Shown here in pieces: positions 15,376-36,278 of a stretch of DNA of 64,000 bases. A program made the translations under genes and the position numbers. Every line of letters starts with the position of its first letter. The first letter of the stretch is position 1. The notes beneath the pieces are model-generated. The model worked only from the letters and a program-made list of their open reading frames with translations, was not told where the DNA came from and ran no database searches. The stretch is from Candidatus Bathyarchaeia archaeon. GTDB lineage: Archaea; Thermoproteota; Bathyarchaeia; Bathyarchaeales; Bathycorpusculaceae. The DNA lies in contig JBBFKZ010000003.1 in the NCBI GenBank assembly GCA_037481775.1, positions 64,001 through 128,000 of the forward strand, in the 5' to 3' direction.

Positions 15376-15993
15376 CTATTTACCGAGTTTTTCAGCGAGA
15401 AGACGCTCAGCTATTTTCAGCTCTTGCACGGTGTTTATGTTCACCGCAACCTCCTTCAAATCCAGCAAGCAAATTGCTTGTTCTAACTCGCCCTCGTCAA
15501 TCCTGCGCCCGTCAATCAAGTTGATTCCTGCAGGAACTACACGCGTGCCTTCAAAGGTAAACGCATATTCTCCGCTAAACCCCAACCGCTCTTTCGTTTC
15601 AAACGGAACTACAACGCTCAATGCGGGCTTACCGCACCTTTCATAACACTTCACTATAGCGTCGATAACTTCCCCAGTAATCAATGGGAGATCAGCTCCA
15701 ATAGCTAGGACAGCATTCAATCCGAGGCTTTTAAGAGCGTATTGCATGTCAGAAACGTATTCTTTTCCAGGAGTTTTGATAACGGAAACTGGAAACCGCA
15801 GCATCAGCGCCGCCGTTTTAGGTGTATAGTCACTGACAGCAACCACGATGGAGTCAACTTTCTTGGCTGCTCTCAACGCCGTAATGATGTACTCGATAAT
15901 AGGTTTGCCGCCTATGCAGATAAGTGGCTTCTCCTCAGAAAGCGCCATGCGGGTGCCCTTCCCGCCGGCCATGACAAGCGCGGTTACGCCCAC
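15376..15993 (-). CDS. cobY: Adenosylcobinamide-phosphate guanylyltransferase CobY
   Basis: MAGGKGTRM..EKPL, ADLP, NINT; follows cobS. Confidence 0.85.
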   Translation of the reverse strand: MGVTALVMAGGKGTRMALSEEKPLICIGGKPIIEYIITALRAAKKVDSIVVAVSDYTPKTAALMLRFPVSVIKTPGKEYVSDMQYALKSLGLNAVLAIGADLPLITGEVIDAIVKCYERCGKPALSVVVPFETKERLGFSGEYAFTFEGTRVVPAGINLIDGRRIDEGELEQAICLLDLKEVAVNINTVQELKIAERLLAEKLGK

Positions 15994-16736
15994 CGCATCA
16001 CCGCCAACAAAGCGACCAGAGAAGTCATTCGGACAATCTCGTTTGTTGCACCCAGCACGTCGCCTGTTACACCCTTAAAGTGTCTATGGGCAATTTCTAC
16101 CATAATGAAGCTTGCCGCTATGGCCGCAAGCAAGGTCAAGGCGCCTGCCAACCGCAGCAGAGGTAAGATTATCGCGAAGGAAATAGCCACAGCCGCGAGT
16201 AGTCGTGTATTGCCGTTTTTGCCATGCATAGCCTCAAGAAAGGCAGAGCTCATTCCCTGATGAACTGCGTTGCCGGCCCAGGCACCGATGACCATGGCTA
16301 ATTTCGCTGCAACCTCAGCCACTATTATGCCCTGGATGATTATGCCTCTGTGCAGTTCAGCTATGGAGAACGCCGTGACTAAGAAGGTAATTATCCCAAG
16401 GGATAATCCGCCCGCGCCAGTTAACTGGTCATGCATGATTTCGATTTTTCTTTCCGCTGAGCCATGAGCCATAATTCCGTCGCCGAAATCCAACAAGCCA
16501 TCGGTGTGATGTAACCCTGTGATTAGCAACAGCACGCCGAGCACTAACGTGCCCACGACTAAGCTGGGGAGAAAATGGGCAGTAATCCAACCGAATAAAC
16601 CAGCCAAAAACCCGATGAACGCGCCTACCAGTGGAAAAAGGAACATAAACTTTGCAGAGTCGGTTAAACAATCTTTGTCCATACTTACTGGAATAATTGT
16701 AAGAAAAGAAAGGAGATTTTTAACTTCTTTAAGCAT
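15984..16736 (-). CDS. cobS: Cobalamin synthase CobS
   Basis: SFLTIIP, TGLHHTDGLLDFGDG, MHDQLTGAGG, GVTGDVLGATNE. Confidence 0.93.
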   Translation of the reverse strand: MLKEVKNLLSFLTIIPVSMDKDCLTDSAKFMFLFPLVGAFIGFLAGLFGWITAHFLPSLVVGTLVLGVLLLITGLHHTDGLLDFGDGIMAHGSAERKIEIMHDQLTGAGGLSLGIITFLVTAFSIAELHRGIIIQGIIVAEVAAKLAMVIGAWAGNAVHQGMSSAFLEAMHGKNGNTRLLAAVAISFAIILPLLRLAGALTLLAAIAASFIMVEIAHRHFKGVTGDVLGATNEIVRMTSLVALLAVMRWA

Positions 16737-16745
16737 TTAGCCGCA

Positions 16746-17861
16746 TCACCGTACGCCCATTAACAACTCATAGTTTCTCTCAATTTCCTTAAGCATCATA
16801 CCCCTTGTTATGGCGCCGCCCGTCTTAGCCATCGCCGCTATGGAAGCACCGCCAGCGCCTACACCTTCCTTTACAATGCCCTTCTCATAAGCCTTTAAAC
16901 CGTCAAATCGAGACGATGCAAAGTCCAGATCAGCTGCTAAAATGGGCACATCTGCAATCTGATCCACAATGCCCTTGATATCGGATGAGCAGTCGCTTAT
17001 AACCCAACGCGTGGTGCCGATAGCCACGTTGCACAAGATGCTTGGCTTCAACGCTTTGGCAACGGCTAATACAGCGGTCATCTGAGTGCCTCCGGCCATT
17101 AGCACTGGAACTTGAGCGGCAGCACCGATAACTAAGCCCGCGAAAGCAGGCATCATAGGGTCGCCTAGGCATGCGATTGCTTTAACGGGGTTTTTTGCCA
17201 AGCCGCCGAACCCTACGCTTGCAGAGGCTAATCCCACGCGGACGGCTTCACTTTTTAAGCTGTGCGGATTTTCTGGCATGCTACTGCTGACTTTCCCTTC
17301 AGCTTTTACGCCCATGGCTGACAGAACACCTAATGCGGTTGTTGTGCCGCCTGGTATGCTCTCGCCGATTACAAGGTAATCAGCCATCTTAGCCAGATGC
17401 TCGCCTGCCAAAGTAGCCCGCTGAATAACCGCCTCAACGTTATCCACTGCGTTTCCAGTTCTTATGTCTCTGCCTGGGCTTCCGCCTAAATCCAAAAACG
17501 GAATCTGCGGCTTCACCTTCAACCCGCCACATGCAACAATCACAGGTATATCCGCAAGCTTCAAAGCTGACAGAGTTATCAACGCCGGCGTTGGAATGCC
17601 ATCAGGAGTAACGGGCACACCTGCAATGCATTTACATTTGCCCAACAGCAGTAGCTCAGCATCCGCGGGTGGTGTGTAATCAGTGAATTCTGGAAATTTC
17701 CCAGCTGCTGATATACCAGGAATCTTGGCTGTTTCTGTTGTGGCTATGGTGCAGACGAAAAGCGGCTTCTTTCCATCCAGCTCTTCTAGGAAGGCTTCTG
17801 CCTTAGGCTCGTTTCGTGCTAATATCACATCAAAGGTTTTTTTCATTACCAAACCTACCAT
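16746..17861 (-). CDS. cobT: Archaeal CobT-type nicotinate-nucleotide phosphoribosyltransferase
   Basis: IPGISAAG, GESIPGGTTTA, AGGTQM, YEKGIVKEGVGAGG. Confidence 0.9.
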   Translation of the reverse strand: MVGLVMKKTFDVILARNEPKAEAFLEELDGKKPLFVCTIATTETAKIPGISAAGKFPEFTDYTPPADAELLLLGKCKCIAGVPVTPDGIPTPALITLSALKLADIPVIVACGGLKVKPQIPFLDLGGSPGRDIRTGNAVDNVEAVIQRATLAGEHLAKMADYLVIGESIPGGTTTALGVLSAMGVKAEGKVSSSMPENPHSLKSEAVRVGLASASVGFGGLAKNPVKAIACLGDPMMPAFAGLVIGAAAQVPVLMAGGTQMTAVLAVAKALKPSILCNVAIGTTRWVISDCSSDIKGIVDQIADVPILAADLDFASSRFDGLKAYEKGIVKEGVGAGGASIAAMAKTGGAITRGMMLKEIERNYELLMGVR

Positions 17862-18529
17862 TTCTTAGATTTGACTGTGAAACTTTTGATCATCAAGCGC
17901 CCATAACCATTAAGCCTTACCTTCTCGCTTTCAAGAATCTCAAGCCGCTTCCTGAAGATTGGCCCGTCTATTACAAGTGTGTGAAATTCACCATGCTCTC
18001 CACAGGGGTCAACGGTACCAAGCCGGCACAGGTCATCAAAGAACGCTTGGGTTATTTCTCTGCCAAGCCACTCTAGCCCCAGCAATTCGGTTTTTACCCT
18101 AACCAAGACAGCCTTGAAACCCGCGGCTATGAACTCCCGGAGAATCTGGGTGGTATCGCGATGCCACAGAGGCCTAACAGGCACTAAGCCCACTTCTTTG
18201 CAGATACGCTCTAACCAGCCAGCCTCATGCAGAGCCACGTCAAAAACATCCCCAGTCACAATACCTTCCACGCCCTCGGCTTTCAGCTTCAGTAATGCCT
18301 TCTTGAAATCTTGCTCGTAAGTCGCGGGGGTGGTTGTCCATTTTTCTATTGGAATACCGATGGCTTCTGATTGGGCATCAAGCAGGTCTGAGGGGATCAT
18401 GTGGAAATTTGATTTTTGCGGGTCAGACATCATAGTCAACAAATGCGACACAGCGTGCCCTTCCTGGATTGCTTTGTAGCATGCAAAGCAGCTGTCTTTG
18501 CCGCCGCTCCATGAAGCAACAAGTTTCAT
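17855..18529 (-). CDS. Dph6-like PP-loop ATP pyrophosphatase
   Basis: SWSGGKDS, PLW, DPCGEHGEFHT. Confidence 0.88.
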   Translation of the reverse strand: MKLVASWSGGKDSCFACYKAIQEGHAVSHLLTMMSDPQKSNFHMIPSDLLDAQSEAIGIPIEKWTTTPATYEQDFKKALLKLKAEGVEGIVTGDVFDVALHEAGWLERICKEVGLVPVRPLWHRDTTQILREFIAAGFKAVLVRVKTELLGLEWLGREITQAFFDDLCRLGTVDPCGEHGEFHTLVIDGPIFRKRLEILESEKVRLNGYGRLMIKSFTVKSKKW

Positions 18530-22607: not shown

Positions 22608-23255
22608 CTATATGCGTTTTTGAAATGCGTCTAAAACTCCGTGGCAGTCGCAGGTTGTGGCTACAACGAATTTCTCCCGTTGCCTTGCCCAATTGAAGAA
22701 GTCTAGAAGTTCACTGCCTTTAAGCGCCCCCATGCCCGGCGCCATCGAATGACTGATCAGAATAAACGCGTCTGGACTAGCGAACCTTATCAGCTCGGTC
22801 ATGGTGCATGGCTTTCTCATGTGCGTAGAGGGGCAGATGGGGGGCATTGAACATTTTTCTACACAGCTTTTGTCTCTGTTGAAGCTTGTAACAAGCTTTC
22901 CCTTCCCAGCAGCCAGCACAACAACTTCAGGCAGTTTGGGCAGTATGGCGTTTATGGCTTCAGTCCATGGATCAAGGGCAAACTTGATTTTCGCCAAGTC
23001 GGCAGCTATGTGCACGGGTGCTGTGGGAAATACATACTCGGGTTTAAGCTTTTCAATCAGCTCTAAAACCGTTGAAAGATCACCTTGAACAAAGTGCTCT
23101 CCATTAGACAGAGATTGCCTCGAAGCCGCGAGCCCAAATCTCCTTACGGCAAGACAGTTTGGATAAGTATCAACTACCACAAAGCCTTTGCCTTTCTGCC
23201 TTAGATGCTCAACTGCGTAGCACCCGTATTTCCCGCCGCCAATAATAATATTCAT
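22608..23255 (-). CDS. NAD(P)-binding Rossmann protein with Cys-rich C-terminus
   Basis: IIGGGKYG...VVVD; CVEKC...CP...PC and TCDCHG. Confidence 0.7.
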   Translation of the reverse strand: MNIIIGGGKYGCYAVEHLRQKGKGFVVVDTYPNCLAVRRFGLAASRQSLSNGEHFVQGDLSTVLELIEKLKPEYVFPTAPVHIAADLAKIKFALDPWTEAINAILPKLPEVVVLAAGKGKLVTSFNRDKSCVEKCSMPPICPSTHMRKPCTMTELIRFASPDAFILISHSMAPGMGALKGSELLDFFNWARQREKFVVATTCDCHGVLDAFQKRI

Positions 23256-23437: not shown

Positions 23438-24616
23438 GTGCGCAGCGGAAGCATTATGGGCCAAACAAAGCTATGCGTTGTCACCCATACCTTTCTGCCT
23501 CACGTAGGCGGGATAGAGAAGGTTGTTTATGAGCAGTGTAAACGTTTGATGCGGAAGCAGTTTGAGCCTACGGTGGTGACACATAGAAATTACACGGCTA
23601 AAAATTATGTTGTTGATGGAATAGGTGTCAAATGCTACGATGCGGTTAACATCGGATTTAGGCTCGGAATCCCCTACGCTATTCCGCAGATTAGCAGCTT
23701 CAGAACTTTTTTGGAAGCAGTAAAAGCCAGCGACCTCATACATGCACATGGTCATCCATATCCATCTTCTCTTATCGCTGCGAAAATCGCAAAGAAATAT
23801 GGGAAACCGGTGGTGCTCACGCAGCACAACACGTTCATAGAGTATGAAAACAGCCTCTGGGATCATGTGGAATGGCTAAATGACTGCGCCATTGGAAGAG
23901 AAGCCTTGAAAGCTTCTGACAGAATAGTTGTCGTCAGCAATGCAACGCGAAATTACGTTTTGAGTTTAGGAGCAGATCCTAAAAAGGTATGTGTGCTCCA
24001 CAACGGCGTCGACGTAGACCGCTTCAAACCCTTAGCGGGTGTAAGAGATGAAATGAGAAAGAAACTGGGAATCCCTGAAGCATCACGCGTCGTTTTAACA
24101 GTTAGGCGAATAGTTTACAAGAATGGTGTTGACACGCTAATAGATAGCGCAGAAAAGTCGATTCGGAAGAACCCGCGCTTAGTTTTTCTTGTAGTGGGCA
24201 AAGGACCTGACTTTGAGAAGGTAAAAGAAAAAATAGTCCAGCTGGGAATACAGGAAAATTTCAGGCTCACAGGTTTTGTTTCCGACGATGACTTGCCATT
24301 TTATTATAATGCCGCAGACTTCTTTGTCTTGCCCTCAAAGTCTGGAGAAGGCTTGCCACTAGTGGCGCTTGAAGCCATGGCTTGCGGATTGCCAGTTATT
24401 GCGACAAATGTTGGAGGAATCTCTGAAATTATGAAAGAGGAATGCGGGAAGCTCGTGCCGCCTAATTCACCTGACGTTCTCGCAGAGGCAATATTAGAGT
24501 TTTCTAGAAGAGAGTTGGCTTCTCTCAGAAGAGACTTACGCGTAATGGTTGAGCAGGAACATAGTTGGGACAGGAACGTGGAGAAATTAATCGAAATATA
24601 CGAAGAGCTTATTTAA
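23438..24616 (+). CDS. GT4 family glycosyltransferase
   Basis: GGIE, HNGVD, EGLPLVALEAMACG. Confidence 0.93.
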   Translation: MRSGSIMGQTKLCVVTHTFLPHVGGIEKVVYEQCKRLMRKQFEPTVVTHRNYTAKNYVVDGIGVKCYDAVNIGFRLGIPYAIPQISSFRTFLEAVKASDLIHAHGHPYPSSLIAAKIAKKYGKPVVLTQHNTFIEYENSLWDHVEWLNDCAIGREALKASDRIVVVSNATRNYVLSLGADPKKVCVLHNGVDVDRFKPLAGVRDEMRKKLGIPEASRVVLTVRRIVYKNGVDTLIDSAEKSIRKNPRLVFLVVGKGPDFEKVKEKIVQLGIQENFRLTGFVSDDDLPFYYNAADFFVLPSKSGEGLPLVALEAMACGLPVIATNVGGISEIMKEECGKLVPPNSPDVLAEAILEFSRRELASLRRDLRVMVEQEHSWDRNVEKLIEIYEELI

Positions 24617-24665
24617 CCAGATTACGGAAACTATATAAAATTTCAGCGCTGGAAGTTGCAAGGCA

Positions 24666-25346
24666 ATGACATTGAAGGTAGACATGATTTCAGTAGTGAT
24701 TCCCACACTCAACGAAGCTGGGAACATCCTTGAGGAATTGACAACAATTGAGAAAGAAGTGAAATACCCGAAAGAGATTATAATTGTAGATGGAGACTCC
24801 ACCGACGGGACTAAGGAGATAGTGAAAAAAGCAAATTGCAAACTAATTGTTGAGCCCAGACGCGGCTATGGACTTGCATTGAGAACAGGCTTTAAGCATG
24901 CAAAAGGCGATGTCATAGTTATGGTTGACGGGGATGGCACTTATGAAGTAAGGCACATCAACCTTCTGGTTGACGCATTGATAAAAAACAATGCTGAATT
25001 ATGCCTTGCAACGCGAATGTACGATCCGAATAAAGCGATGGGGTTTATGAATTTTGTTGGAAACAAAATAATAACGTTCTTTTTCGACTTTTTTTACAGA
25101 CAGTTTATCAGCGATTCACAGTCTGGTTTCCGTGCTATATCACGTGCGGCAATTGAAAAGGTTGATTTAGAACAGACGGATATGGCATTCGCTACGGAGA
25201 TGCTGATACAATTCGCTAAAAAAGGCTTTAAGATGATTGAAGTGCCTTCGACTTATAAGGCAAGGAAATATGGGAAAACTAAGCTGAGAAGGATTAAGTC
25301 TGGAATAGAGATTTTCACCACCATGGTCAGAGGCTTAATAAGGTGA
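24666..25346 (+). CDS. GT2 family (DPM1-like) glycosyltransferase
   Basis: VIPTLNE, VDGDSTDGT, DGDG, DSQSGFR. Confidence 0.93.
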   Translation: MTLKVDMISVVIPTLNEAGNILEELTTIEKEVKYPKEIIIVDGDSTDGTKEIVKKANCKLIVEPRRGYGLALRTGFKHAKGDVIVMVDGDGTYEVRHINLLVDALIKNNAELCLATRMYDPNKAMGFMNFVGNKIITFFFDFFYRQFISDSQSGFRAISRAAIEKVDLEQTDMAFATEMLIQFAKKGFKMIEVPSTYKARKYGKTKLRRIKSGIEIFTTMVRGLIR

Positions 25347-25885
25347 AGACACTTTCGGAACTAAAGAAAAATATTGCCGAAAGCTTAGGCTATAACGACA
25401 GCAAAGGCCACAAAATTGCAGTGGTGCTTGCGCTGATATTTGTTTCTAGTCTTCTTTTAGGCTATTATTTTGTTTCAAGATCTCCGCCGGAAGGGTATAA
25501 CACAATTTATTTGTTGGATTATCAGCATAGAAAAGCTATAGACTATCCTGAACTTTTAGTAATCGCTGGCAACGAAGAAAACAGCACGGTTAGTGTTTGG
25601 GTTGTGGTTGAAAATCACATGGGCAGCAATCAATCTTATCAATTGTTGCAAAAAGTGGTGAGAGGTTCAATTCTTTCCTTTCCAGTTGAAGCTGAAGCAG
25701 AGCAAAGTTACATGAAGACGTTAGGGGATGGCGAAAAATGGGAGATTTTAGCGACTGTTTCCTTAAATGAACCTGGAAGTTACTCGGTGGTTTTTGAGCT
25801 TTGGGTTTATGACGCGGGTACAGAAGCTTTTGTGTTCTCTTACAATTATTGCGTTTTGAACATCGATGCTATAGAACGAACCTAA
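25343..25885 (+). CDS. Membrane-anchored DUF1616-like protein
   Basis: One TM helix, then YNTIYLL...DYP...VVVENH; 4-nt overlap with the GT2 gene. Confidence 0.6.
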   Translation: MKTLSELKKNIAESLGYNDSKGHKIAVVLALIFVSSLLLGYYFVSRSPPEGYNTIYLLDYQHRKAIDYPELLVIAGNEENSTVSVWVVVENHMGSNQSYQLLQKVVRGSILSFPVEAEAEQSYMKTLGDGEKWEILATVSLNEPGSYSVVFELWVYDAGTEAFVFSYNYCVLNIDAIERT

Positions 25886-25888
25886 AAC

Positions 25889-27355
25889 TCATTGTGTAGC
25901 ATCGTGCTGTGCACAATATTCCTCTTCAGTGGGTATTCTATGAACATTGTTGTATGCGCAGAAGGGTACAATTTTCAAGTCTGGTGTGACATAGTGAACA
26001 ACGCATCTTCTGACGCGGTTTATGTCGAATGTGTATGGGTCCATGAAAGCCATGCAGCCTAGGAGGAAGATTCTTCGCCGCAAATTGGCAAGCGACTGAT
26101 AAGATGGAGAAATATGCATTTTAAGAATGGTCTTTGTAAGGGTGAATATGCCAATTTCTTTGGTAACCAAGAGCCAGTTTAGAGATTGCATAGACGCCAA
26201 AAACAGTGCCGAGAGTATAGAGAAGCGCCCTTTGGTCTTCACCGATTTCGCCGTTTTCTGCAGGACGCGGAAGAAACGCTCAAAATTAACAAAGTGATTA
26301 ATGGGGATAATTTTTCCTTTTTTTGATACGTACATCCAGTTTACGAGGCCGCACTGTGGACTGCAGGAAAACAGGGGCCAGGGCTTTTTCATGAATTTGC
26401 TCATGACTATTATAGGTGAAGTCATAATGGAAAGGGGAAAGAGATCGGTGGTTTTAATTTCGCCGTTGGTTTGCGTTTCAACTTCTTCGGCGAAGCTTGT
26501 ATCTCGCCATTCTTCTCGTAATGGATTATCAACCGCTCGACCAGTAAACGCGATAGGCTGGAAGATTATTCCCCGTATAATGTAGGAGTTCTGCGCCGCG
26601 AATCGTATAATGGCGCCAACTTCAGCGTCATTTACTCCACGCACCAGAGTAGTGACCAGTATTACTTCTATGTCATATTTACGGCAGTTTTCTATGGCTT
26701 TCATCTTGGTTTGCAGTAGCTTCTTACCGCGCAGTTTCTCGTAAATTTCATCGTGAAAACTGTCAAACTGCAAATAAACTATGTTCAAACCTTTTTCCTT
26801 GAGCTTTTTAACAAGCTCTTCGGAACGCGCCAATTTAACACCATTAGTTGCCAAGATAGTCATGAACCGCAGTTTATGCGCAGCAGCAATTATCTCCGGC
26901 ATGTCCTCGCGTTCCAGCGGTTCACCGCCTGAAAACAAGATTGCCGGCGGCTTAGGATTACGGTTGCTTAAGAACTCCAGCATATTCACTATTTTTTCTT
27001 TGCTAGGTTCGTAGTCAACTTCATGTCCGGAAAAAGTGGCAAAGCAAACAGGGCATCTTAAATCGCAGCGTTTTGTAACGTCAATTACGCCGATCACTGT
27101 GCTGGAGGCATGCTTATCACAAAAGCACGTGTAGGGGCAACCATCAGGATTCTTAGGAAAGCTTGCGTCTCCGAAATATTTGAAATAATCATATTCCTCG
27201 GCAAACTTGAAGACACAAGGACTTTCCCAATGCGCAGCGGAAAATGTTCCGTGCTCTTTACAGGTTTTGGTAAGTAAAATTTTACCGTTCACTTCAGTTA
27301 ATTCAGCATCTATTTTTTTATGGCATACTGGGCAGATGCTTTTTGTTTTCCTCAC
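25889..27355 (-). CDS. tes: Radical SAM tetraether lipid synthase (Tes/GDGT-MAS family)
   Basis: N-terminal CPVC...CKEHG, GCPYTCFC, SAM motif CDLRCPVC, C-terminal CMAFMDPYTFD..R...CVVHY.TPD...PFCAYN. Confidence 0.85.
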   Translation of the reverse strand: MRKTKSICPVCHKKIDAELTEVNGKILLTKTCKEHGTFSAAHWESPCVFKFAEEYDYFKYFGDASFPKNPDGCPYTCFCDKHASSTVIGVIDVTKRCDLRCPVCFATFSGHEVDYEPSKEKIVNMLEFLSNRNPKPPAILFSGGEPLEREDMPEIIAAAHKLRFMTILATNGVKLARSEELVKKLKEKGLNIVYLQFDSFHDEIYEKLRGKKLLQTKMKAIENCRKYDIEVILVTTLVRGVNDAEVGAIIRFAAQNSYIIRGIIFQPIAFTGRAVDNPLREEWRDTSFAEEVETQTNGEIKTTDLFPLSIMTSPIIVMSKFMKKPWPLFSCSPQCGLVNWMYVSKKGKIIPINHFVNFERFFRVLQKTAKSVKTKGRFSILSALFLASMQSLNWLLVTKEIGIFTLTKTILKMHISPSYQSLANLRRRIFLLGCMAFMDPYTFDINRVRRCVVHYVTPDLKIVPFCAYNNVHRIPTEEEYCAQHDATQ

Positions 27356-28248
27356 AGGAATCCTCCAATCACTGGCAATAGCGCCTCGATTATCAGCGAA
27401 AGCGGAAGCAACATCATGGACATCGTTATCAGCCGCTCGTATTTTCGCACATTCTCAACTATTGATGCGGAAATCACAAGGCGAATTGAAGAGTAAAGAA
27501 GAAGAACACTCCAGAGCAGCATAAGCGGCAAGTAATACAGGGTGAATTGATTTAGAAGGTAAGGCAGCGGCGTAGACAAACTTGTTACAATAAAGAAGAC
27601 AGCCGCGACCCTTACAGCGTTGGCACTGCCGATTTTCTGAGGAAGCGTTGGATACCTCACCTTGGCGTCGCCCTCTATGCTTAAAACATCCCGGAGGACA
27701 TTGCCGCCTATTGTGCCAAACGCGATGGGATACAAACTTAAAGAGGCAAAAGTTAAAGCACCCGGGCTTATCACATCAGCACCCAAGGTAACGGCTTCAC
27801 CATATAGGAAGGCGGTTCCAGTTAATAGACCAACAAGAATGTTAGCGGCGAAACCTGATTTCCGCTTGATAAATGCAGAGTATATCACAAGCAATATGGA
27901 GTCAACTATGAGAATTATGAGGCAGAGCTTGTTTATTAAAGCGGCAAGGCTGAGACCGAGGACGAAAAAGAGAACCGCAATGGTCACAACTTGCTTAAGC
28001 GACAACGCGCCGGACGGAATAGGGCGTTTTGGTTTAATAACCGCGTCGCTTTCTCTGTCAAAATAGTCATTCAGCGCAAAGCCCGCAGAAGTGATAAACG
28101 CCATAGAGAAGAATGTTAACAGCGCAACTTCTGGGTTAAGAAAGCTTTTGGTTATGGCAAAGGCAGTTAGAAGCGCTAAACCGCCTGTCATCATCCAGTA
28201 GGGAATGCGCAAAAGAGCGAAAACACCTTTAACAGCAGATGTGGTCAT
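27352..28248 (-). CDS. UbiA-family prenyltransferase (DGGGP synthase-like, divergent)
   Basis: NDYFDRESD..KPKRPIPSG; second acidic motif reads RDVLSIEGD; multiple TM helices. Confidence 0.88.
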   Translation of the reverse strand: MTTSAVKGVFALLRIPYWMMTGGLALLTAFAITKSFLNPEVALLTFFSMAFITSAGFALNDYFDRESDAVIKPKRPIPSGALSLKQVVTIAVLFFVLGLSLAALINKLCLIILIVDSILLVIYSAFIKRKSGFAANILVGLLTGTAFLYGEAVTLGADVISPGALTFASLSLYPIAFGTIGGNVLRDVLSIEGDAKVRYPTLPQKIGSANAVRVAAVFFIVTSLSTPLPYLLNQFTLYYLPLMLLWSVLLLYSSIRLVISASIVENVRKYERLITMSMMLLPLSLIIEALLPVIGGFL

Positions 28249-29189
28249 GCGAACATTCTCCTTTCCAAGATGAGCTCTCTCAAATTATCTTCAAGGCTTA
28301 TTTTCGGCTGCCAGCCTAAGACCTTCTTCACCTTGCCTATGTCAAACCAGATAGTGTTTATGTCGCCTTTCCAAGGAACATTAGTAGTAGTTATAACCGT
28401 TTTATTAGATAAACCGAGAATTTTCAGGATCATCTTAGCAAGGTCTATTATCTTTATTGTTCTACCATAACCAATGTTGAAGGTTTCTCCTATTGCCGCG
28501 TCGCTTGTAGCCGCAAGAAACAGCGCGTCCACCACATCGAAGACATGGACAAAATCGCGGGACTGCAGACCGCTACCAATTATTTCCAGTTTCTCCGGGT
28601 TTCTGCTAATTTTATTCAAAAAGTCCTCTATGACACCATGGCATCTTGGACCATAAACATTAGCTAAACGTAGAATAGTGATGTCTAGGCCATACTGCTT
28701 TGAATACATATTACAGTACTGCTCACCAACCACTTTAGACAAGCCATAACAGGAGGCTGGGCTGTAACCGTAGCTTTCAGGCGTCGGCAACACAGGAGTA
28801 TTACCGTAAACTGCCGCGCTTGAAGTGAAAACTACTCTTGCATCGTCTTTCCGCGCTTTTTCCAGCACATTTAACGTGCCCCGCGCGTTTGTTTCAAAAT
28901 CTTCTATGGGGTTCTCCATTGAGTAAGGAACAACAACTTGAGCGGCTAAATGGAAAATTACATCAGCTTTCTCTTGAGATTGAAGCTTCTTTAAATCGCG
29001 TATATCCGCCTTCACAAAGCGCACCTGCGGAACATGCTTGACGTTCTCCACTTTCCCGCTTGACAAGTTATCGTAAATTGTTAGGCTGCTGGTTAATTCG
29101 GATAATTTCTTGCAGAGGTGAAAACCTATAAAACCGGCGCCGCCGGTTACAAGTATTCTCGCTTCATTCAGTTTACCCATGAAATTCAC
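28245..29189 (-). CDS. NAD-dependent nucleotide-sugar epimerase/dehydratase
   Basis: TGGAGFIG, SSAAVYG, YGLSK, NVYGP; ATG 29180 is an alternative start. Confidence 0.93.
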   Translation of the reverse strand: MNFMGKLNEARILVTGGAGFIGFHLCKKLSELTSSLTIYDNLSSGKVENVKHVPQVRFVKADIRDLKKLQSQEKADVIFHLAAQVVVPYSMENPIEDFETNARGTLNVLEKARKDDARVVFTSSAAVYGNTPVLPTPESYGYSPASCYGLSKVVGEQYCNMYSKQYGLDITILRLANVYGPRCHGVIEDFLNKISRNPEKLEIIGSGLQSRDFVHVFDVVDALFLAATSDAAIGETFNIGYGRTIKIIDLAKMILKILGLSNKTVITTTNVPWKGDINTIWFDIGKVKKVLGWQPKISLEDNLRELILERRMFA

Positions 29190-29228
29190 GACAAAGTCTA
29201 TATCTTTATTTGGCTCCGTGTAGGCTAT

Positions 29229-30032
29229 ATGTCGAAGATGAAAGCTATAAAAACTTTTAGGGATTTACTTGCTTTCCTAACAATAATTCCATTAGGCAAA
29301 ACTGACGATTTTGTGGTAACCTCCGCTGAAGCCATGTTCCTATTCCCCGTAATAGGCGGATTTATAGGCCTGCTGGCTGCTGCCTACTTTACCGGCTGCA
29401 GCTTCCTAATCACGCATATCTTCTCGTTTATCAGCTCACTCAGCCAATTTCCCACGGAACTCCTGACTCAGATTCTTCCCGCTGTTATGACGCTGGCGCT
29501 TATTCTTGTTTTAACCGGGCTTCAACATTTCGATGGGCTAGTAGACTTGGGCAACGCGGTAGGCGTCGGCGGCATAAAAGAGAGAAGAGCCGCGGCGCAC
29601 GTGTGGACTGTAACGTATAAAGGTGCCTTATTAGCGATTTTTGTTGAGTTTTTGGCTGTCTTAGGACTGTTTTTAATGAAGGCAGAATCCGCGTTTGGCG
29701 TGATAATTGCAGCTGAGGTGGCAGCCAAGCTAGGTATGGTCACAATTGCTTGCCTAGGAAAATCGACACATAGCGGTTTAGGCGCCCTTTTTGTTGAAGC
29801 AGCAAAGCGTAAGCGTAACTTGGCGGCTTACTTTCTCGCAATCTTGATTGTTTATCCACTTTTAGGTTGGCTGGGCTTTTTGGCGATTTTTGTAAGTGTT
29901 CTTTTAGGCGCCTTCATGTGCGGCGTAGCCCATAACGTTTTCGGCGGCGTTTCCGGCGACGCCATAGGAGCAACAAACGAGATCACTAGAGCAACGGTTT
30001 TATTGCTTATAGCATGGGTGCTGATGTCATGA
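29229..30032 (+). CDS. CobS-family membrane phosphotransferase, second divergent copy
   Basis: AFLTIIP, TGLQHFDGLVD, GGVSGDAIGATNE; start moved to ATG 29229 to avoid overlapping the epimerase. Confidence 0.85.
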   Translation: MSKMKAIKTFRDLLAFLTIIPLGKTDDFVVTSAEAMFLFPVIGGFIGLLAAAYFTGCSFLITHIFSFISSLSQFPTELLTQILPAVMTLALILVLTGLQHFDGLVDLGNAVGVGGIKERRAAAHVWTVTYKGALLAIFVEFLAVLGLFLMKAESAFGVIIAAEVAAKLGMVTIACLGKSTHSGLGALFVEAAKRKRNLAAYFLAILIVYPLLGWLGFLAIFVSVLLGAFMCGVAHNVFGGVSGDAIGATNEITRATVLLLIAWVLMS

Positions 30033-30649
30033 AGATTCCTGCGTTGATAATGGCTGGTGGTAAAGGCAAAAGAATGGGATCGAAAGTTGAGAAGCCAATG
30101 TTGCCTTTCTTCGGCAAACCACTAATCGATTGGGTCGCAGAAGCAGTGGCGTCGGCGGCGAAAGTTTCAGAATTTTACGTGGTCACGAGCACCAATACGC
30201 CGGAAACAGAAAGGCACTGTAAAACCAAGGGCTGGCGTGTTCTGCGAACCGACGCTATGGGTTATCATGAAGATTTGAAGCAGGCTGTTCGCGCTGCCGG
30301 CCTAGAGGGAGCGGTGCTTACTCTGCCCGCGGATCTGCCAGCGTTAACTGGAAAGTTTCTGGACAAGGTTATAAGTGAATTTGAGACATGTGGCAAAGAT
30401 TTTTTGGCGGTTTTTGTACCCATAGAAACGCGTGAATCACTGGGGCTTTCAGTTTCATCCATAGACGAACATAAGGGTGTTTGGTACGCTGTTGCCGGCG
30501 TCAACATTGTGAACGGCTCGAAGATTCAGGGAGAAGGAAAAATTGAGACAAGCGCCATAATAACCGAGGAAGTTGAGGTTCTCTTAAACATTAACACGCT
30601 GAATGATCTGGAAATCGCGGAAAAAATCATACAAAACATGAAGAGATAA
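30029..30649 (+). CDS. CobY-like nucleotidyltransferase, second copy
   Basis: MAGGKGKRM..EKP, ADLP, NINT; ATGA overlap with the upstream gene. Confidence 0.85.
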   Translation: MKIPALIMAGGKGKRMGSKVEKPMLPFFGKPLIDWVAEAVASAAKVSEFYVVTSTNTPETERHCKTKGWRVLRTDAMGYHEDLKQAVRAAGLEGAVLTLPADLPALTGKFLDKVISEFETCGKDFLAVFVPIETRESLGLSVSSIDEHKGVWYAVAGVNIVNGSKIQGEGKIETSAIITEEVEVLLNINTLNDLEIAEKIIQNMKR

Positions 30650-30808: not shown

Positions 30809-30922
30809 ATGGTTAGTGCATCAATGTTGGTTTTGCTTGGTGCAGGTTCATCTTCGCTGCTTGTAGCATTTATTGAGTACGCTTATCAGCGTAGAAAGAG
30901 AAAGCAGGCTGGGCTGGCTTAG
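30809..30922 (+). CDS. Small single-TM peptide (37 aa)
   Basis: MVSASMLVLLGAGSSSLLVAFIEYAYQRRKRKQAGLA: hydrophobic helix plus basic tail; TATA-like TTTTATATA about 45 bp upstream and GGAG. Confidence 0.45.
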   Translation: MVSASMLVLLGAGSSSLLVAFIEYAYQRRKRKQAGLA

Positions 30923-30930
30923 GCAAGCTT

Positions 30931-32372
30931 TCAGGCTGGCGGTTTTCTCCAGAATAGGTAGATTTTGGTTTGGGCTGTGAAGCTTAGGCGCTTAAGCGTT
31001 AGCGCTAGGTCGTCTATGCTCATGGTGGAGATTTTCGCTAGGAATTCTTCGTGCTTTGGGTAGACGCTTTTTAGTTTGGCTAGGCGTCTGCGTATGGTGG
31101 CGTCGCGTTGGGATAGCGTTTCAAGCACTGTAAGAATCTTGTTACAGCCTATTTGGTTGATTTTTTGTTTGCAGTATTCGGTGTTGGTGAGCAGCGGAGT
31201 GTCGAAGCCGAGTTTTTGCAGTTGTGTTAGCGCGTTTGTTATGTGAGGGCGGGGTTTGCTTTCGGCTATGCGTTGCATGCCGGCTTTTTCGAAGAATGGG
31301 TTGTAGCGTGCCATTACGGCGACTGTTTCTACGCAGGGTGTTCCTGCTTGTGTGAGGGTTTCGGCGACGAGTTTGGCGCCTAGGCCTATGCTGCGGTATT
31401 TTGGGTGTATTATTACTCGGCTGATGGTGCTGATTTCCCGTTGTAACTGTGTGAGTGTGCCTTTCCATGCTTTGCTGCGTCCGAAGCATGTTGGCGGCGG
31501 GTAGCTGTAGACGATTACGCCGATTGTTTCGTTTTTTCGTTTGAGAAGATTTTTAGGTGTGGTGGCAGGTGTGCGGTGCGGTAGTGGAATTGGCTGAGTG
31601 CTTTGTAGTCGTCTATTGTGCCCTGTGTGATGCGTGTTTGTCTTGTTAGGCTGCAGCTTTGGGCTTTTGCGTGTGGGTTGTAGCTTATGTGGATTTCTTT
31701 TCCGTAGCGTTTATGGATGTGTACGTTTGGTGCTAAGTCAGTTTTGATGTCGATGTGTGTGGTTGCTGCGATTACAGCTTTGCCGAGTGTGCGTGCGAGT
31801 TTTTGGAGGTTGTAGGCGATGATTTTGGCGGTGTCGCGGTCCAGTGTGCTGGTGAATTCGTCTATTATCCACCATTGTGCTGGTGTTTCTGCGAGGCGTG
31901 CGATTTGGTAGCGGTGTTTTTGGCCGTCGCTAAGTTGCGTGTATGTGCGGAGGAAGAGGAAGGCGTCGTTTAGGCCGACTTTGCTGAGGAGTTCTAGGGC
32001 TTCTTGTGTGTTTGCACCTATGGTGTCGATTATGGGTGTGTTTTTGTCGAATTGGAGGTCGCGTGTGTCCTGTGCTGCTGTGCCGAGGTCGGTTTTGATG
32101 GCTTGGAGTAGGGCGCTTTTGCCGCTGCCGCTGTCGCCTGTGATGAGGACGATGTCGGTTGGGCGTATGCGTATGCGGGTGTTGTCGTATATTGTGAAGT
32201 GCTGTGTGTTGTCGGCGCCGAGTCCGAAGGCTTCTGCGACGGCGCATGTGCGTTGTGTTTGTGTGGCGGGTGCGGTTTCGTAGGTGATGGTGTAGGTGAA
32301 TGTGTTGGTTTTGCGGTTGTAGGTTCGTTTGAGTGCTTGGATGCGGAAGTGCTCTGGTTTGCGCCGTGTCAT
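30931..32372 (-). pseudogene. ABC-type ATPase-GNAT acetyltransferase fusion, frameshifted near 31545
   Basis: GDSGSGKS, LSDGQK, IIDEF, then HYR. The alternate frame continues LKRKNETIGVIVYSYPPP...ISRVIIHPKYRSIGLG (GNAT motif A) into ORF 30931-31314. Confidence 0.8.
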
Positions 32373-33804
32373 CTGGTTGTGCCTTCTGTTTTGTGGCGGT
32401 TTAGTCTTTGTCGTAGCTTGTTGAGGCTTGTTTTGCCCTTGCTTGTTTTGGAGATTACCCAAAGTTGCGGTTGTGGCGGGGTGCGTGCGGCGTAGACGGC
32501 GAGTGCGAGAGCCCAGAAGCGGTCGTCGTGTGTGCCTGGTGGGTGTGAGAGTAGGATTTTGCCGTCTTTGGTGAGCGTGTAGCGTTCAGTGTTTAGTTCG
32601 GCGATTAGGTTGCTGTCGTATGGTATGCGTAGGCGTTTTTCGGTCATTGTTTGCCGGAGCCATTGGGCCATTTCCTGTTTTGTTTGTTGGGTGAATTTTG
32701 CGGCTTCTGTGTTTGTTAGGCCTGTGTTGGTCATGTCTTCAGTTATGTAGTCGCCTACGCCGCTGCTGTCGGTGAGGATTTTGTGGATTTTTTGCCATCG
32801 GTCGTTTATGGTTTTGACGTAGCCGATGACGCTTGCGTATGGTGTGTTTAGTGGGAAGCGATGCATGTGTGTTAGTTTTAGTGTGTTGTTTTCTGTTTTT
32901 ATTATGGCGAGGACGCTGTGGTCTTGGTGTTTGCCGAGGTCTAGTCCGGCGTAGAAGTCGCCTGTTTGTGTTTCTTCGAATTGGGCGTACTCCAGTGTGG
33001 AGTCGATGCATTGGGTGATTAGTGCTTGGGGGAGCCAGACGTTTTCGTTTTCTGCCCATTGGGCTTCCATTTCGCGTTGCCAGCGGGCGGGGTCGCCTTC
33101 GAGTTGGCGTTTTATGCGGGTGAGTATTTGCGGTTTTAGTGGTCCGGCGGGTTCTAGTGCTTGTTGCCATGTTACGTGTGTTTTGGCGTAGTCGGCGTAT
33201 GTGGGGTCGTGGAAGATTTTGTAGAAAATATGCTGTTTGTGTGCCATGGTGTGCTGGTGCAGATGAATTTGCCGTTTGTTGTGCCGAGCGTGAAGAGCAT
33301 GGCGTCGTAGAGTTCTTCGCCGTTTGGGATGAAGTTGAATTCGTCGGCGTAGACGATGTGGAGTTTGGGTCCGCGTATGGTTTCGGGGTTGTTTGGGTAT
33401 GCTTCGATGGTGCTGCCGTTGTTGAGTGCGACGGTGGTTTTCTGTGGTTTTTTGTAGGCGTTTCGTGGGAGCTTGGTGAGGAAGCTGTTGATGTGTTTGA
33501 TGATGAGTTTGGTTTGTCTCCAGCTTGGTCCGACTATGCCGATGTTTACGTTTGGGTTTGTAAGCGCGTAGTGGAGGAGTAGGGCGCTTATGATGTGGCT
33601 TTTTCCTGTTTGTCTTGCCCAGCGGGCGGCTATGAATTGGCTGTTTTGGAATTGGCGTATGAGTTCGGCTTGGTAGGTGGTGGGTGTGAAGCCGAGGGTT
33701 TCGGTGCAGAACTGAAGTGGGTCTGCGGGGACGGCGAATTTTTTCATTTGGGCGGTTTTCTGTTTGAGCTGCCGGAGTTCTCTTTCCAGCGTTGTGAGGG
33801 TCAT
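32369..33804 (-). pseudogene. Terminase large subunit, frameshifted near 33226
   Basis: ATPase half ARQTGKS, IRG, YADE, STP; nuclease half GLDLGKHQD...HDDRFWALALA. The halves join as SIF-YKIF if 2 T are removed from ATATTTTCTAC (minus strand). Confidence 0.85.
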
Positions 33805-34130
33805 TGTTTTTCGAGTTCTCCTATGGTTTTGCGGAGTTGTTCGAGTTCGGTTTTGATTTGGGTGATGTCGTAGGTTTTGCTGATGCTGTTGATGACTTGG
33901 CTGATGTAGGCGGATAGGCGCACCCAGTTTTGGCGTTCTGCTGGTTTTTTGCCTCCTGTTTCGAGAGCTTGTTCTGTTGCTATTTCGAGGAGGCTTCGGA
34001 GTTCTTGAATGAGTTGGCTGCGAATTCGTTGGGTGTCGCCGTCGAATTTTTCGGTGAGGTCGGTTATTCTTTTCTGTAAAAAGCGTTTATGACGGGGAGA
34101 TTCTCCTCTCCCTCTATAGGTTTTCTGCAT
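33801..34130 (-). CDS. Helical hypothetical protein (terminase small-subunit position)
   Basis: ATG 34130 (MQKTY...); 4-nt overlap with terL; coiled-coil C-terminus. Confidence 0.6.
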   Translation of the reverse strand: MQKTYRGRGESPRHKRFLQKRITDLTEKFDGDTQRIRSQLIQELRSLLEIATEQALETGGKKPAERQNWVRLSAYISQVINSISKTYDITQIKTELEQLRKTIGELEKQ

Positions 34131-34168
34131 AGATTGGCTATTAGGCTCCAAATATGTTCGCCTCCGGG

Positions 34169-34420
34169 CTATGTTTTCTGCGCGATTAGTATGCCTGTGA
34201 TTGTGCCTGCCAAGCCTGTGATGGCCGCGAAGACTTCGCTGTTCCATGCGCCTAAGAGCGCGAGGTGCGCGATTTCTATGGCTGTTAGGCTGAAGGTTAG
34301 GGCGATGGCGAATTTTACGCTGAGCACTAGGCGCTCGCTGGGCTCCGCTTCCGCTGCTGCTTGCGTGGCTGTCTTGTCGGTGGTTTTCCGCGTCAAAGCC
34401 CGCTTAATCCAGTCAGTCAT
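34169..34420 (-). CDS. Small two-TM membrane protein
   Basis: Two hydrophobic segments; overlaps the upstream ORF. Confidence 0.65.
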   Translation of the reverse strand: MTDWIKRALTRKTTDKTATQAAAEAEPSERLVLSVKFAIALTFSLTAIEIAHLALLGAWNSEVFAAITGLAGTITGILIAQKT

Positions 34421-34814
34421 GGTTTCTCACCCTCTGCTGCCGCAGGCAGCGGCCTAAGCTGGGCTTTTTGTTTTTGGCTTTCTCGTTGATTAGGAAGCTG
34501 TTCAGCAGCTGCTTCGCCTCCTCGGCTGCAACATGCGCCTTGGCTAAGACGGTGACGCCTGTGGCCCACGGCACCGGCACCGCCGTGTAGTCAATGTCAT
34601 ATAAGCCATCGCTGTAGCGAAAGCAATTCTGCGCTAATATTATGTGCTTGCGCTTCTGCCCCAGCACGCCGACGAAGACGCCCCAGCTCTTGACGGGCAC
34701 GTCTATGCCGCTGACGCCATTGCTTAAGCTCTTGCCGATGCTGGCGTCATGCCACTCTAACATGACAAGGTCGCCAGCGCTTAAGCCCTTAATCTGGTTG
34801 AGGACTTCCTTCAT
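34413..34814 (-). CDS. Hypothetical beta-rich protein, first gene of the terminase operon
   Basis: GDLVMLEWHDAS...SWGVFVG; minus-strand TATA (TTTATAT) about 35 bp upstream. Confidence 0.7.
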   Translation of the reverse strand: MKEVLNQIKGLSAGDLVMLEWHDASIGKSLSNGVSGIDVPVKSWGVFVGVLGQKRKHIILAQNCFRYSDGLYDIDYTAVPVPWATGVTVLAKAHVAAEEAKQLLNSFLINEKAKNKKPSLGRCLRQQRVRNHD

Positions 34815-34865
34815 GTGTTATTATCAAAAGAAAACGCGATCAATCGCAAATATAAAGACTCGCTA

Positions 34866-34885
34866 AATTTACCAATTGGTAAATT
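34866..34885. promoter_or_regulatory. Perfect 20-bp palindrome, putative protein-binding site
   Basis: AATTTACCAATTGGTAAATT, just upstream of the TATA box of the terminase operon. Confidence 0.55.
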
Positions 34886-35034
34886 CACACATTTACAAAA
34901 GGCAAATGAGTAGTTTGAGCAAAATCAGCATCTCTATGTAGCAAATATGAGATTTGAAATTTGAATAAAATAAAGTTTAAACGAAATACCAAAGTATATA
35001 TTGCTATTTGATGAAATTAATAAATTGACAGAAC

Positions 35035-35385
35035 ATGACGTTATTTGAAGTGATGGCTGCCTTATCCGCAACATTTGCCTTAGGTATTCCGACATTTATG
35101 GAAAAAGTCATGCGTCCCAAATACGAAGAACGCTTTTCGGAGTTCAGAGAGGCGAGAAGAGATTCATTCATAGATGAATTTGAAAAAGCATTACCTCAAT
35201 TGAAACAGGCCAAACAAGAACTAACCCCTGAGATAATAGAGACGATGGAATCATTGTTTAATGAATGGGAAGAAGTTAAGTCGGATGAAAACAAACTTAC
35301 GGTTTTACTCAATTGTAGAAAGTTTTTCTTTATCTTTTGGTTAGTGTCTTGTGCCACGTCATTATTTGCGATTCAATATTCGAAC
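35035..35385 (+). pseudogene. AT-rich membrane protein gene, apparently truncated by a junction near 35385
   Basis: Protein-like through FAIQYSN; the rest of ORF 35035-35553 is the antisense of a convergent gene fragment with different composition. Confidence 0.45.
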
Positions 35386-35547
35386 CGCAGCGGACGCGTC
35401 AACATACGTCTCATCAGGACCAGAAACCACACTCAAAACCAAACGCATCTTATCTTTCAATTCGGAATGCAGAAAAACAAGGTGCTCCCACCGCTCTTCA
35501 TTCAGAGTCACCTCAGTGTCATCGAAAACCACAACCAGCATCAGCAA
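35362..35547 (-). pseudogene. Truncated RelE/PBECR-like toxin fragment
   Basis: VTLNEERWEHLVFLHSEL...VVSGPD matches the N-terminal pattern of these nucleases; the C-terminal half is absent. Confidence 0.45.
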
Positions 35548-35753
35548 CCTTAAACATTAGACCCCTCAATCAACCTATAAAACTAACTCAAAATATGCCT
35601 GACACCTCTTCAAAACTCCCCCAAGCCACACACCCAATAACTTTTCACCGATGCCAACAGCGATGACGCCTAGACCAATCCAGCCATTCCCGCAGCTTCG
35701 CCAAAAACTTATATCCCCTCTGTGCTCATACCAATGGCTAAGGAAATGAGAAA

Positions 35754-36074
35754 ATGAAAGGAGCCATAGTTTTTCTAGCAGTCTTCGCCATAGCAGTCAT
35801 AATAACCATTGGAAACACGGCAATACCCCCGGGAAAAGCAATCTACGACGCCCTCTTACCAAACACTGAAGCAGCCTCAGGCTACCTCGTCGGCGGCCAA
35901 GTAGACGCTATAACACTGATAATCGCAGTTTTTAACGGCGTAATATACGGCTTCATCGCCTGGCTAATATTCACCATAATAAACGCAGTATTCAAAAAAG
36001 ACAAAAAACAAACCGTCCAGCAAGTAGTAAACGTCAACATCAGCGACAAAGACAAAAATGCCACCGTAAAATAG
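35754..36074 (+). CDS. Membrane protein
   Basis: Two hydrophobic helices; TATA-like CTTATAT upstream. Confidence 0.75.
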   Translation: MKGAIVFLAVFAIAVIITIGNTAIPPGKAIYDALLPNTEAASGYLVGGQVDAITLIIAVFNGVIYGFIAWLIFTIINAVFKKDKKQTVQQVVNVNISDKDKNATVK

Positions 36075-36278
36075 CGCACACCACACACAAAACGCATACA
36101 AAATACCTATGCTCTACATTTTTTCACTTAAACCCTTAACAAGCTACACGCCAACAGCACCCTACACAAGCAAAAGCAGTTTTCACTCATCAAACCTCCA
36201 GCACAAGACCCGTTAAAACTTGAAAACGGGAATGTTTTTATGGCTTCACGCAACTAACAAGCATGGTGAAAACAAAAA

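Follow-up and report, generated by a model that had tools for sequence, protein, structure and literature searches.

The DNA considered here (the window) is a 64,000-nucleotide stretch, C3:64001-128000, of the genome of a member of the Bathyarchaeia; the assembly measures 1.82 Mb and is 96.7% complete. It holds a compact block of eight genes (Table 1). Three of them encode a GT4 glycosyltransferase, a GT2 glycosyltransferase and a DUF1616 membrane protein; three encode an extended short-chain dehydrogenase/reductase (SDR), a UbiA-family prenyltransferase (UbiA2) and a tetraether lipid synthase paralogue (Tes2); and two encode paralogues of the cobamide enzymes CobS and CobY (CobS2 and CobY2). 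The GT4-GT2-DUF1616 genes converge on SDR-UbiA2-Tes2, and these are divergent from CobS2-CobY2. Overlaps of 4 bp are found at SDR/UbiA2 and at UbiA2/Tes2, the SDR is translationally coupled to UbiA2 and Tes2, and the convergent stops of DUF1616 and Tes2 are only 3 bp apart. An earlier note on this DNA had listed these eight genes, a short gap between the epimerase and CobS2, and a canonical cobS/cobY pair elsewhere in the window. The open reading frames are present as that note described them, with families assigned by profile scans. The gap from the SDR ATG (29180) to the CobS2 ATG (29229) was measured at 48 bp, and the canonical pair is present as well, in a cobamide salvage cluster with CobT, a Dph6-like protein, BtuD/C/F and CobZ that reaches position 22592.

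Table 1. The eight-gene block and related features. Positions refer to the window, except in the last row, which gives contig coordinates in the same genome.
Feature	Position	Strand	Profile match or remark
AF_1314-family protein (Rossmann-like N-terminus, Cys-rich C-terminus)	22608..23255	-	nearest ESM Atlas clusters: PF27252 AF_1314_C
GT4 glycosyltransferase	23438..24616	+	PF00534 151 bits, PF13439 97 bits
GT2, polyprenyl-phosphate hexose transferase type (AglJ-like)	24666..25346	+	PF00535 95 bits
DUF1616 membrane protein, short	25343..25885	+	PF07760 34.5 bits (cut-off 31.6), C-terminal part of model
Tes2, divergent tetraether lipid synthase paralogue (radical SAM)	25889..27355	-	NF045702 461.8 bits (cut-off 450)
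UbiA2, DGGGPS-like prenyltransferase paralogue	27352..28248	-	PF01040 118 bits
Extended SDR, NAD-dependent epimerase/dehydratase	28245..29180/29189	-	PF01370 197 bits
Divergent intergenic region, 48 bp	29181..29228	.	holds conserved BRE/TATA-like box ACAAAGnCTATAT
CobS2, divergent CobS-family membrane phosphotransferase	29229..30032	+	PF02654 93.5 bits (cut-off 23.2)
CobY2, CobY-family nucleotidyltransferase, overlaps CobS2 3' end	30014..30649	+	PF12804 79.9 bits
Canonical CobY1 + CobS1	15376..16736 (CobY1 15376-15993, CobS1 15984-16736)	-	CobS1 TIGR00317 176 bits
CobD, CbiB and CbiZ copies of the host genome (G000)	C8:62830-64829, C13:13577-14632, C2:60699-61565, C8:26150-26749, C2:32285-32872		

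The eight genes are a conserved, co-inherited unit. Twelve Bathyarchaeia loci from GTDB with a CobS2 of 65-82% identity show the same gene order and lack no module gene for which their contig has room. Weaker CobS2 matches supplied 16 more loci, six of them from a second family (f5) at 40-50% identity, and all 16 have UbiA2, Tes2, CobS2 and CobY2. In the f5 loci the SDR-UbiA2-Tes2 segment is inverted, and 2-5 kb with an oxidoreductase gene lie between it and CobS2-CobY2. The linkage that the earlier note had seen in one genome thus stands when synteny is compared across Bathyarchaeia: taking both sets of loci, CobS2 is found within 5.5 kb of UbiA2-Tes2 in 26/26 loci of sufficient length. In 25 of these 26 the SDR is adjacent as well, and in the other (L061) it is absent. 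GT4-GT2-DUF1616 is less constant. GT4 is collinear in most loci compared, and DUF1616 follows GT2 in family f1 and in 5/6 f5 loci (it is undetected in L057); the three genes were not found upstream in L062 and are incomplete in three f5 loci. The divergent region that CobS2-CobY2 shares with the SDR-UbiA2-Tes2 operon contains a box, ACAAAGnCTATAT, that is conserved and lies some 30 nt ahead of the CobS2 ATG. CTATAT is kept in 19/20 f1 loci and CTATA in 20/20, and the box may be a BRE/TATA promoter element.

Presence and absence of the module follow the same pattern. A fixed sample of 301 Bathyarchaeia genomes was surveyed. CobS2-type sequences score at least 155 bits in 36 genomes, with a contig-edge fragment in a 37th, and ordinary CobS at most 125 bits; Tes2-type sequences score at least 509 bits, and the remaining Tes matches at most 385 bits. 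By these thresholds the two types coincide in an identical set of 37 genomes, and neither is found alone in any genome; the other 264 sampled genomes have neither type. The carriers, a small group of uncultured archaea from sediments and hot springs, belong to one order, with 30 in f1 (eight genera) and 7 in f5 (one genus). Both types are lacking from 18 f1 genomes and 5 f5 genomes. Ordinary CobS is retained in all 37 carriers, and of the 91 genomes in which CobS was matched, 54 have ordinary CobS only. Since the carrier genomes are kin, the co-occurrence is worth about nine genera, not 37 independent events.

Tes2 can be aligned end to end with the Methanocaldococcus jannaschii tetraether synthase GDGT-MAS (7TOL, 398.7 bits) and by that alignment has the same four-domain layout, with a score just above the family cut-off. 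Features of Tes given in the available part of PMC13459092 are a radical SAM CxxxCxxC motif, a rubredoxin-like site of three Cys and one His, and an N-terminal cluster site, also of three Cys and one His. The corresponding CxxxCxxC, CxxC...CxxH and C..C..C..H motifs are present in 27/27 Tes2 sequences, aligned with 7TOL. The 'CM...C...C' segment, a candidate site for the C-terminal [4Fe-4S] cluster with three Cys and one Met as ligands, is kept in 21/27; in this Tes2 differs from the known enzyme, its first Cys being replaced by Ser or Gly in five sequences, and one sequence is truncated. Tes2 also differs in being a second copy, always linked to UbiA2 and CobS2. The earlier note had asked whether canonical tes and DGGGPS genes exist elsewhere and whether Tes2 forms a clade of its own, and both are the case. 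Tes1, on C9, scores 677 bits on NF045702 and is 38% identical to Tes2, and the Tes2 clade is separated from 20 Bathyarchaeia Tes1 sequences with 100 SH-aLRT (SH-like approximate likelihood ratio test) support by a long branch of about 1.9 changes per site. The Pfam match of Tes2 is named Zn_ribbon_HMPTM, and relatives of Tes were formerly annotated as pterin methylases. A role in methanopterin biosynthesis was rejected, because the module is limited to 37/301 genomes.

For UbiA2, DGGGPS is the best-matching characterised family. UbiA2 resembles it in length, topology and first Asp-rich motif, and scores 102.6 bits against the M. jannaschii enzyme (6M31). It differs from DGGGPS in scores below both equivalog cut-offs (169.4 vs 296 and 167.9 vs 269) and in its second motif. 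The housekeeping copy, UbiA1, is on C4 (246.9 bits on PRK12884), is 29% identical to UbiA2 and is adjoined downstream by a lipid-type membrane gene. Both acidic motifs of UbiA2 had been noted as altered, and this is correct for the second only. The first, NDxxDxxxD (NDYFDRESD), is intact in 27/27 orthologues, and the DAVIK that had been taken for it merely follows. The second is RDxxSxxGD (DxxSxxxD) in place of DxxDxxxD in 26/27, where 6M31 has KDFEDMEGD; chlorophyll synthase 9SAU, with NDFKSVEGD, has the same pattern as UbiA2. To judge by these motifs, UbiA2 is not crippled. The SDR keeps its GxxGxxG and YxxxK motifs in 25/25 orthologues, and its scores are all under cut-off (GalE 175.7, LegB 169.9, RmlB 152.5). 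Other housekeeping lipid genes in the host genome include one GGGPS, one CarS and two CDP-alcohol transferases.

Of the glycosyltransferases, GT4 reaches no NCBIfam equivalog cut-off, and GT2 scores 156.6 on TIGR04182 AglJ (cut-off 325) and 101 on the dolichyl-phosphate hexose transferase model (cut-off 375). The AF_1314-family gene that adjoins GT4 does so in 13 loci, every one of family f1, and was not found in six f5 loci. Its product has no Pfam match above cut-off and no NCBIfam match.

The host genome has exactly two CobS and two CobY genes, the pairs being 36% (CobS) and 38% (CobY) identical. CobS2 and CobY2 belong to the same families as the loop-assembly enzymes, their genes are adjacent and overlapping like the canonical ones, and their expected chemistry, by analogy, would be alike: transfer of a GDP-activated phosphate to an alcohol in the membrane. 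CobS2 is nevertheless an outlier. On TIGR00317 it scores 102.9 bits, under the cut-off of 110, and CobS1 scores 176. According to the available part of PMC8092220, HxDxxxDxxD is found in all homologues of Salmonella CobS, where D82A, D86A and D89A each abolish function, and GxxGDxxG contains an essential Asp. The earlier note had reported that CobS2 lost conserved residues, and the two substitutions prove to be clade-wide: HxDGLxDxGN stands in place of HxDGLxDFGD, and AH(A/V)W..V(T/S) in place of M(H/K/R)D...G, in 29/29 locus sequences and in six further representatives. The third Asp of HxDxxxDxxD is Asn in all CobS2, and Asp in 7/7 CobS1 and in the canonical representatives shown. By alignment, then, CobS2 lacks at the D89 equivalent a residue required for cobamide synthesis in Salmonella. 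Other functional positions are kept, including the equivalents of H80, D82 and D86 and the loop-6 Asp (D229). GxxGDxxG is exact in 25/29 sequences, its first Gly being Glu in one and residue 4 being Pro in three, and the loop-6 Asp is kept in all 28 sequences with residues there (one has none at those columns). No solved CobS structure was found in the PDB copy searched.

In a tree of 92 CobS-family sequences, CobS2 and five representatives form one clade (SH-aLRT 99, stem 0.47) separate from the Bathyarchaeia CobS1 clade, so that CobS2 does stand apart from ordinary CobS, as had been anticipated. The clade is small, since only 16 CobS2 matches at E<=1e-30 came out of a complete HMMER scan over 1.84 billion representatives. 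CobS2 never replaces ordinary CobS, and it is found among lipid and glycosyltransferase genes. CobY2 scores close to CobY1, presumed to be a genuine CobY: the two reach 125.5 and 133.6 bits on TIGR00454, both under the cut-off of 174.7, and 68.8 and 73.1 bits against M. jannaschii CobY (2MZB). One representative of the CobS2 clade (P0133) is an outlier; in another cluster two members carry bacterial labels of metagenome-assembled genomes on short contigs, which is read as binning noise. An f5 genome (G086) has an ordinary CobS (L098:7045-7776) that is 37% identical to host CobS1, retains canonical HxDGLLDFSD and MHD, and adjoins homologues of MtrH and of a 785-aa membrane protein.

The eight genes form the centre of a larger island. 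Downstream of CobY2, many genomes have an AhbD/NirJ-like radical SAM-SPASM enzyme, a DUF362 protein, a GT4, two GT2 and a small membrane protein. Further island genes encode a CobD-like pyridoxal phosphate enzyme, here CobD2 (TIGR01140 279-295 bits, cut-off 290.55), a second CbiB and up to three B12-binding radical SAM enzymes. In all, the extended island has five glycosyltransferases, of which two are of dolichyl-phosphate hexose transferase type. In the host genome the extended-island genes are found on C13 and C2, and a provirus-like remnant occupies their place in the window. The three B12-binding radical SAM genes are BchE/HpnJ-like, each below all curated cut-offs; they are contiguous with the island in G136 (L071) and scattered in the host (C13:9366-12373 and C2:59003-60451; L075, L076), where an MtrH-like methyltransferase is found near the C2 copy.

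The part of PMC11214058 that was available describes Gms as an AhbD homologue with an N-terminal extension, clustering with B12-radical SAM methylases; its criteria for Gms are an N-terminal COG4001 extension and E<=1e-80 to the T. guaymasensis protein. Enzymes of the Gms/Gmm type cross-link and methylate tetraethers, and Gmm homologues are found in many Bathyarchaeota (same source, same part). On this basis, the radical SAM genes of the extended island are read as putative tail-modifying lipid genes. The extended island resembles the gms-gmm-grs clusters in that an AhbD-like radical SAM-SPASM enzyme, N-terminally extended by some 115 residues, is likewise found beside B12-radical SAM genes. 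It differs in that the host counterparts are outside the window, on C13 and C2, and in its Tes, UbiA and CobS paralogues, none of which is mentioned for those clusters in the available part of PMC11214058. The Gms-like gene of the host (C13) scores 301.7 bits on AhbD from residue 118 and has a SPASM domain; its first 115 residues or so match no Pfam family, and it is likened to Gms by its layout. Gms-like matches are widespread (166/301 genomes), with an island tier of at least 623 bits in 36/37 carriers, a broken copy in G196 and at most 503 bits elsewhere. The G196 gene (L057 region, G196:C2:155447-156322) has three in-frame TGA codons and is broken or recoded; the Gms-like genes of G136 and G086 have one TAA each. 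Tetrapyrrole chemistry, to which the AhbD/NirJ-like enzyme and the ChlG-like motif of UbiA2 might point, was dropped because Gms is an AhbD-homologous lipid enzyme (PMC11214058, available part) and because UbiA1 fits ChlG models equally well as UbiA2.

Several cobamide genes other than CobS and CobY are also duplicated. The host genome has two copies each of CobD, CbiB and CbiZ, and a single CobT and CobZ. On C8 a CobD-CbiB pair is found alongside hem and early cob genes. In three loci (L071, L072 and L074) CobD2 and the second CbiB are intermingled with B12-radical SAM genes at a distance of 1-13 kb downstream of CobY2. The second CbiB, typed by copy number and position, is present in 30/37 carriers and 1/264 other genomes, and CbiB is single-copy in 34 other CbiB-bearing genomes. 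Typing by score alone was rejected, as a genome that lacks the module has just one CbiB, with a score of 257.6 bits. The second CbiB scores above the CbiB equivalog cut-offs, and in five carriers the island-type CbiB is the only one found, which suggests that it still serves cobamide synthesis. CbiZ was rejected as an island member, since neither copy was found in any of the island loci compared.

What the island makes can be approached from this gene content. Most broadly, the product is probably a membrane-spanning lipid of a kind not yet described. The more specific explanation preferred here, which is held tentatively and given somewhat less than an even chance, is that the eight genes are the core of an accessory island for a membrane-spanning ether glycolipid to which CobY2 and CobS2 would add a GDP-activated phospho group. 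The island occurs in two families within a single Bathyarchaeia order, where it stands beside a complete housekeeping lipid pathway. Tes is known to couple isoprenoid tails on archaetidylglycerol. In the proposed accessory pathway the SDR-UbiA2-Tes2 trio would make a second kind of core lipid. UbiA2 would O-prenylate an acceptor unlike the housekeeping one, perhaps supplied or altered by the SDR, and Tes2 would couple the isoprenoid tails end to end by radical C-C chemistry. Sugars would be added by GT2 (of the polyprenyl-phosphate hexose transferase type), GT4 and DUF1616. CobY2 could then activate a phosphorylated small molecule with GTP, and the membrane enzyme CobS2 could move the phospho-group onto a hydroxyl of the lipid or its sugar with release of GMP. 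Here the head group and not the lipid would be activated, as in the Kennedy pathway. All substrates and the order of steps in this scheme are inferred.

The pairing of a soluble nucleotidyltransferase with a membrane phosphotransferase that forms a phosphodiester is found elsewhere in Kennedy-type activation (CDP-choline or CDP-ethanolamine with a lipid alcohol) and in the IPCT/DIPPS enzymes of di-myo-inositol phosphate synthesis. CobY2 and CobS2 would share only this pairing logic with them, as the protein families, CDP-alcohol phosphotransferases in those systems, are unrelated. Activation of the head group is consistent with the set of duplicated lipid genes: a second DGGGPS-like enzyme and a second Tes with no second CarS leave room for another way of attaching a head group. 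The substrates of Tes are lipids already bearing a head group (available part of PMC13459092), which makes a dedicated Tes for a differently headed lipid reasonable. A lipid role is also strengthened, by analogy, by the neighbouring Gms-like enzyme and the three B12-radical SAM enzymes in other genomes.

Several observations weigh against this explanation. CobY2 and CobY1 score much alike on the CobY models and against the solved CobY. CobD, CbiB and CbiZ are duplicated, and in other genomes CobD2 and the second CbiB are found next to CobY2 in the island; this second CbiB passes the equivalog cut-offs and is the sole CbiB in five carriers. The co-occurrence of CobS2 and Tes2 comes from related genomes of about nine genera. 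The membrane lipids of Bathyarchaeia have never been directly assessed, according to the available part of PMC11868695. The earlier proposal that these paralogues make an unusual lipid or head group is therefore sustained in part: the unit is conserved and has housekeeping copies elsewhere, but the 'repurposing' of CobS and CobY that it assumed has a rival in the cobamide arm.

In that rival, CobD2, the second CbiB, CobY2 and CobS2 would be a parallel line of nucleotide-loop assembly for the B12-radical SAM enzymes of the island, perhaps with a different linker, as in norcobamides, and Tes2, UbiA2 and the glycosyltransferases would merely share the island. Only arm enzymes are doubled (CobD, CbiB, CbiZ, CobY and CobS, with CobT and CobZ single), and the duplicated set is exactly the one that handles the aminopropanol-phosphate arm, as a second cobamide route would have it. 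The placement of CobD2 and the second CbiB past CobY2 among B12-radical SAM genes and the near confinement of the second CbiB to carriers fit as well, as do the scores of CobY2, CobD2 and the second CbiB, which are those of ordinary family members, and the position of the module in f1, where it abuts the salvage cluster. The difficulty is CobS2 itself, with its score below the CobS cut-off, its change at an Asp essential in Salmonella and its replaced conserved block. Because known CobS enzymes tolerate a wide range of lower bases, a new base would be no reason to expect a second CobS. CobS2 also follows Tes2 exactly (37/37) and not the commoner B12-radical SAM or Gms-like genes, and the steadiest neighbour of CobS2-CobY2 is the SDR-UbiA2-Tes2 operon. 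Gmm homologues are common, yet more than half of the genomes with a CobS match have ordinary CobS only, and B12 enzymes alone would thus need no second CobS. A second cobamide pathway is the main rival and a serious one, if on the whole less likely than not. Another idea, which is quite improbable, is that the arm toolkit was copied to membrane chemistry, where an aminopropanol-phosphate bridge would join a carboxylate partner to a hydroxyl of the tetraether glycolipid that UbiA2, Tes2 and the glycosyltransferases would make. CobD2 would make the amino-alcohol phosphate, the second CbiB would link it as an amide, CobY2 would activate it with GTP and CobS2 would transfer it. In the milder form of this idea the product would be a new amide-linked phospho-amino-alcohol head group; in the boldest, the partner would be a corrinoid, and a membrane-tethered, base-off cobamide would serve the three B12-radical SAM enzymes, which would act at the membrane.

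The acceptor could also be a glycan. UbiA2 and Tes2 would then make a carrier or anchor, and CobY2 and CobS2 would put a phospho-alditol or phospho-sugar on a lipid-linked oligosaccharide or a teichoic-acid-like phosphodiester polymer for the envelope. The five glycosyltransferases of the extended island, the sugar-nucleotide-type SDR and DUF1616 would suit such a product. Envelope structures usually diverge fast, and module proteins do so here (Tes2 of the host and of G086 are 48% identical, Tes1 69%). Use of evolutionary rate to split the island genes into lipid-like and cobamide-like sets was uninformative, the host-G086 identities overlapping (40-66%). None of the loci examined showed an oligosaccharyltransferase, flippase or polymerase, and the Tes family is known only for tail-to-tail coupling of membrane lipids; a surface glycan is unlikely, and it overlaps the glycolipid explanation, differing in the acceptor only. 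Least probable of all is that the genes have no common function and that paralogues from unrelated pathways keep an inherited order in a narrow lineage. All carriers are in two families of one order, and kin keep gene order. The linkage has, however, outlasted the inversion of SDR-UbiA2-Tes2, insertions of 2-5 kb and divergence to 40-50% identity; presence and absence match across the 301 genomes, including the f1 and f5 members that lack both genes; and the box in the divergent promoter region is conserved.

Bathyarchaeia are among the most abundant archaea of sediments, and tetraethers are in wide use as proxies for the environment. A second Tes that is limited to one lineage and comes with a prenyltransferase, glycosyltransferases and putative tail-modifying enzymes of its own leads one to predict a separate class of tetraether with a narrow biological source. 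If the lipid explanation is true, CobS2 and CobY2 would be the first cobamide loop-joining enzymes to act outside cobamide synthesis; if the second cobamide pathway is true, this would be the first archaeon known with two parallel lines of loop assembly. Butanetriol tetraethers seem to be limited to some Bathyarchaeia subgroups (PMC11868695, available part), and a link of the island to them is a conjecture. No description of the Tes paralogue clade, the CobS paralogue clade or this module was found in the literature searched, supplements and most subscription papers being outside its scope.

Some other features of the window lie outside the module. A Dph6-like ATP pyrophosphatase (17855-18529; TIGR03679 164 bits, cut-off 197) is found between CobT and BtuD. 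The order Dph6-like, CobT, CobS1, CobY1 is repeated in L023, L063, L064, L067 and L069, and the protein may be a cobamide-related enzyme so far unrecognised. The provirus-like remnant is immediately downstream of CobY2 (30900-36100), where other genera have the block of Gms-like, glycosyltransferase and CobD2 genes, and has extreme strand skew, with GC skew to +0.38 and AT skew to -0.51. It contains a terminase large subunit in two open reading frames (33172-33804 and 32369-33247) and an ABC/SMC-like ATPase (31515-32462). The element is old, since copies about 82% identical in nucleotides are found in two other genomes of the genus (L013, L016). Among the runs listed as matching the stretch there is no RNA sequencing run; part of it is present in 20 DNA runs of metagenomes from sediments, hot springs, groundwater and bioreactors. 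Further along, a gene for a caspase-like C14 peptidase (39287-40186; PF00656 75 bits) neighbours that of a 609-aa protein with a weak match to an Ig-like domain.

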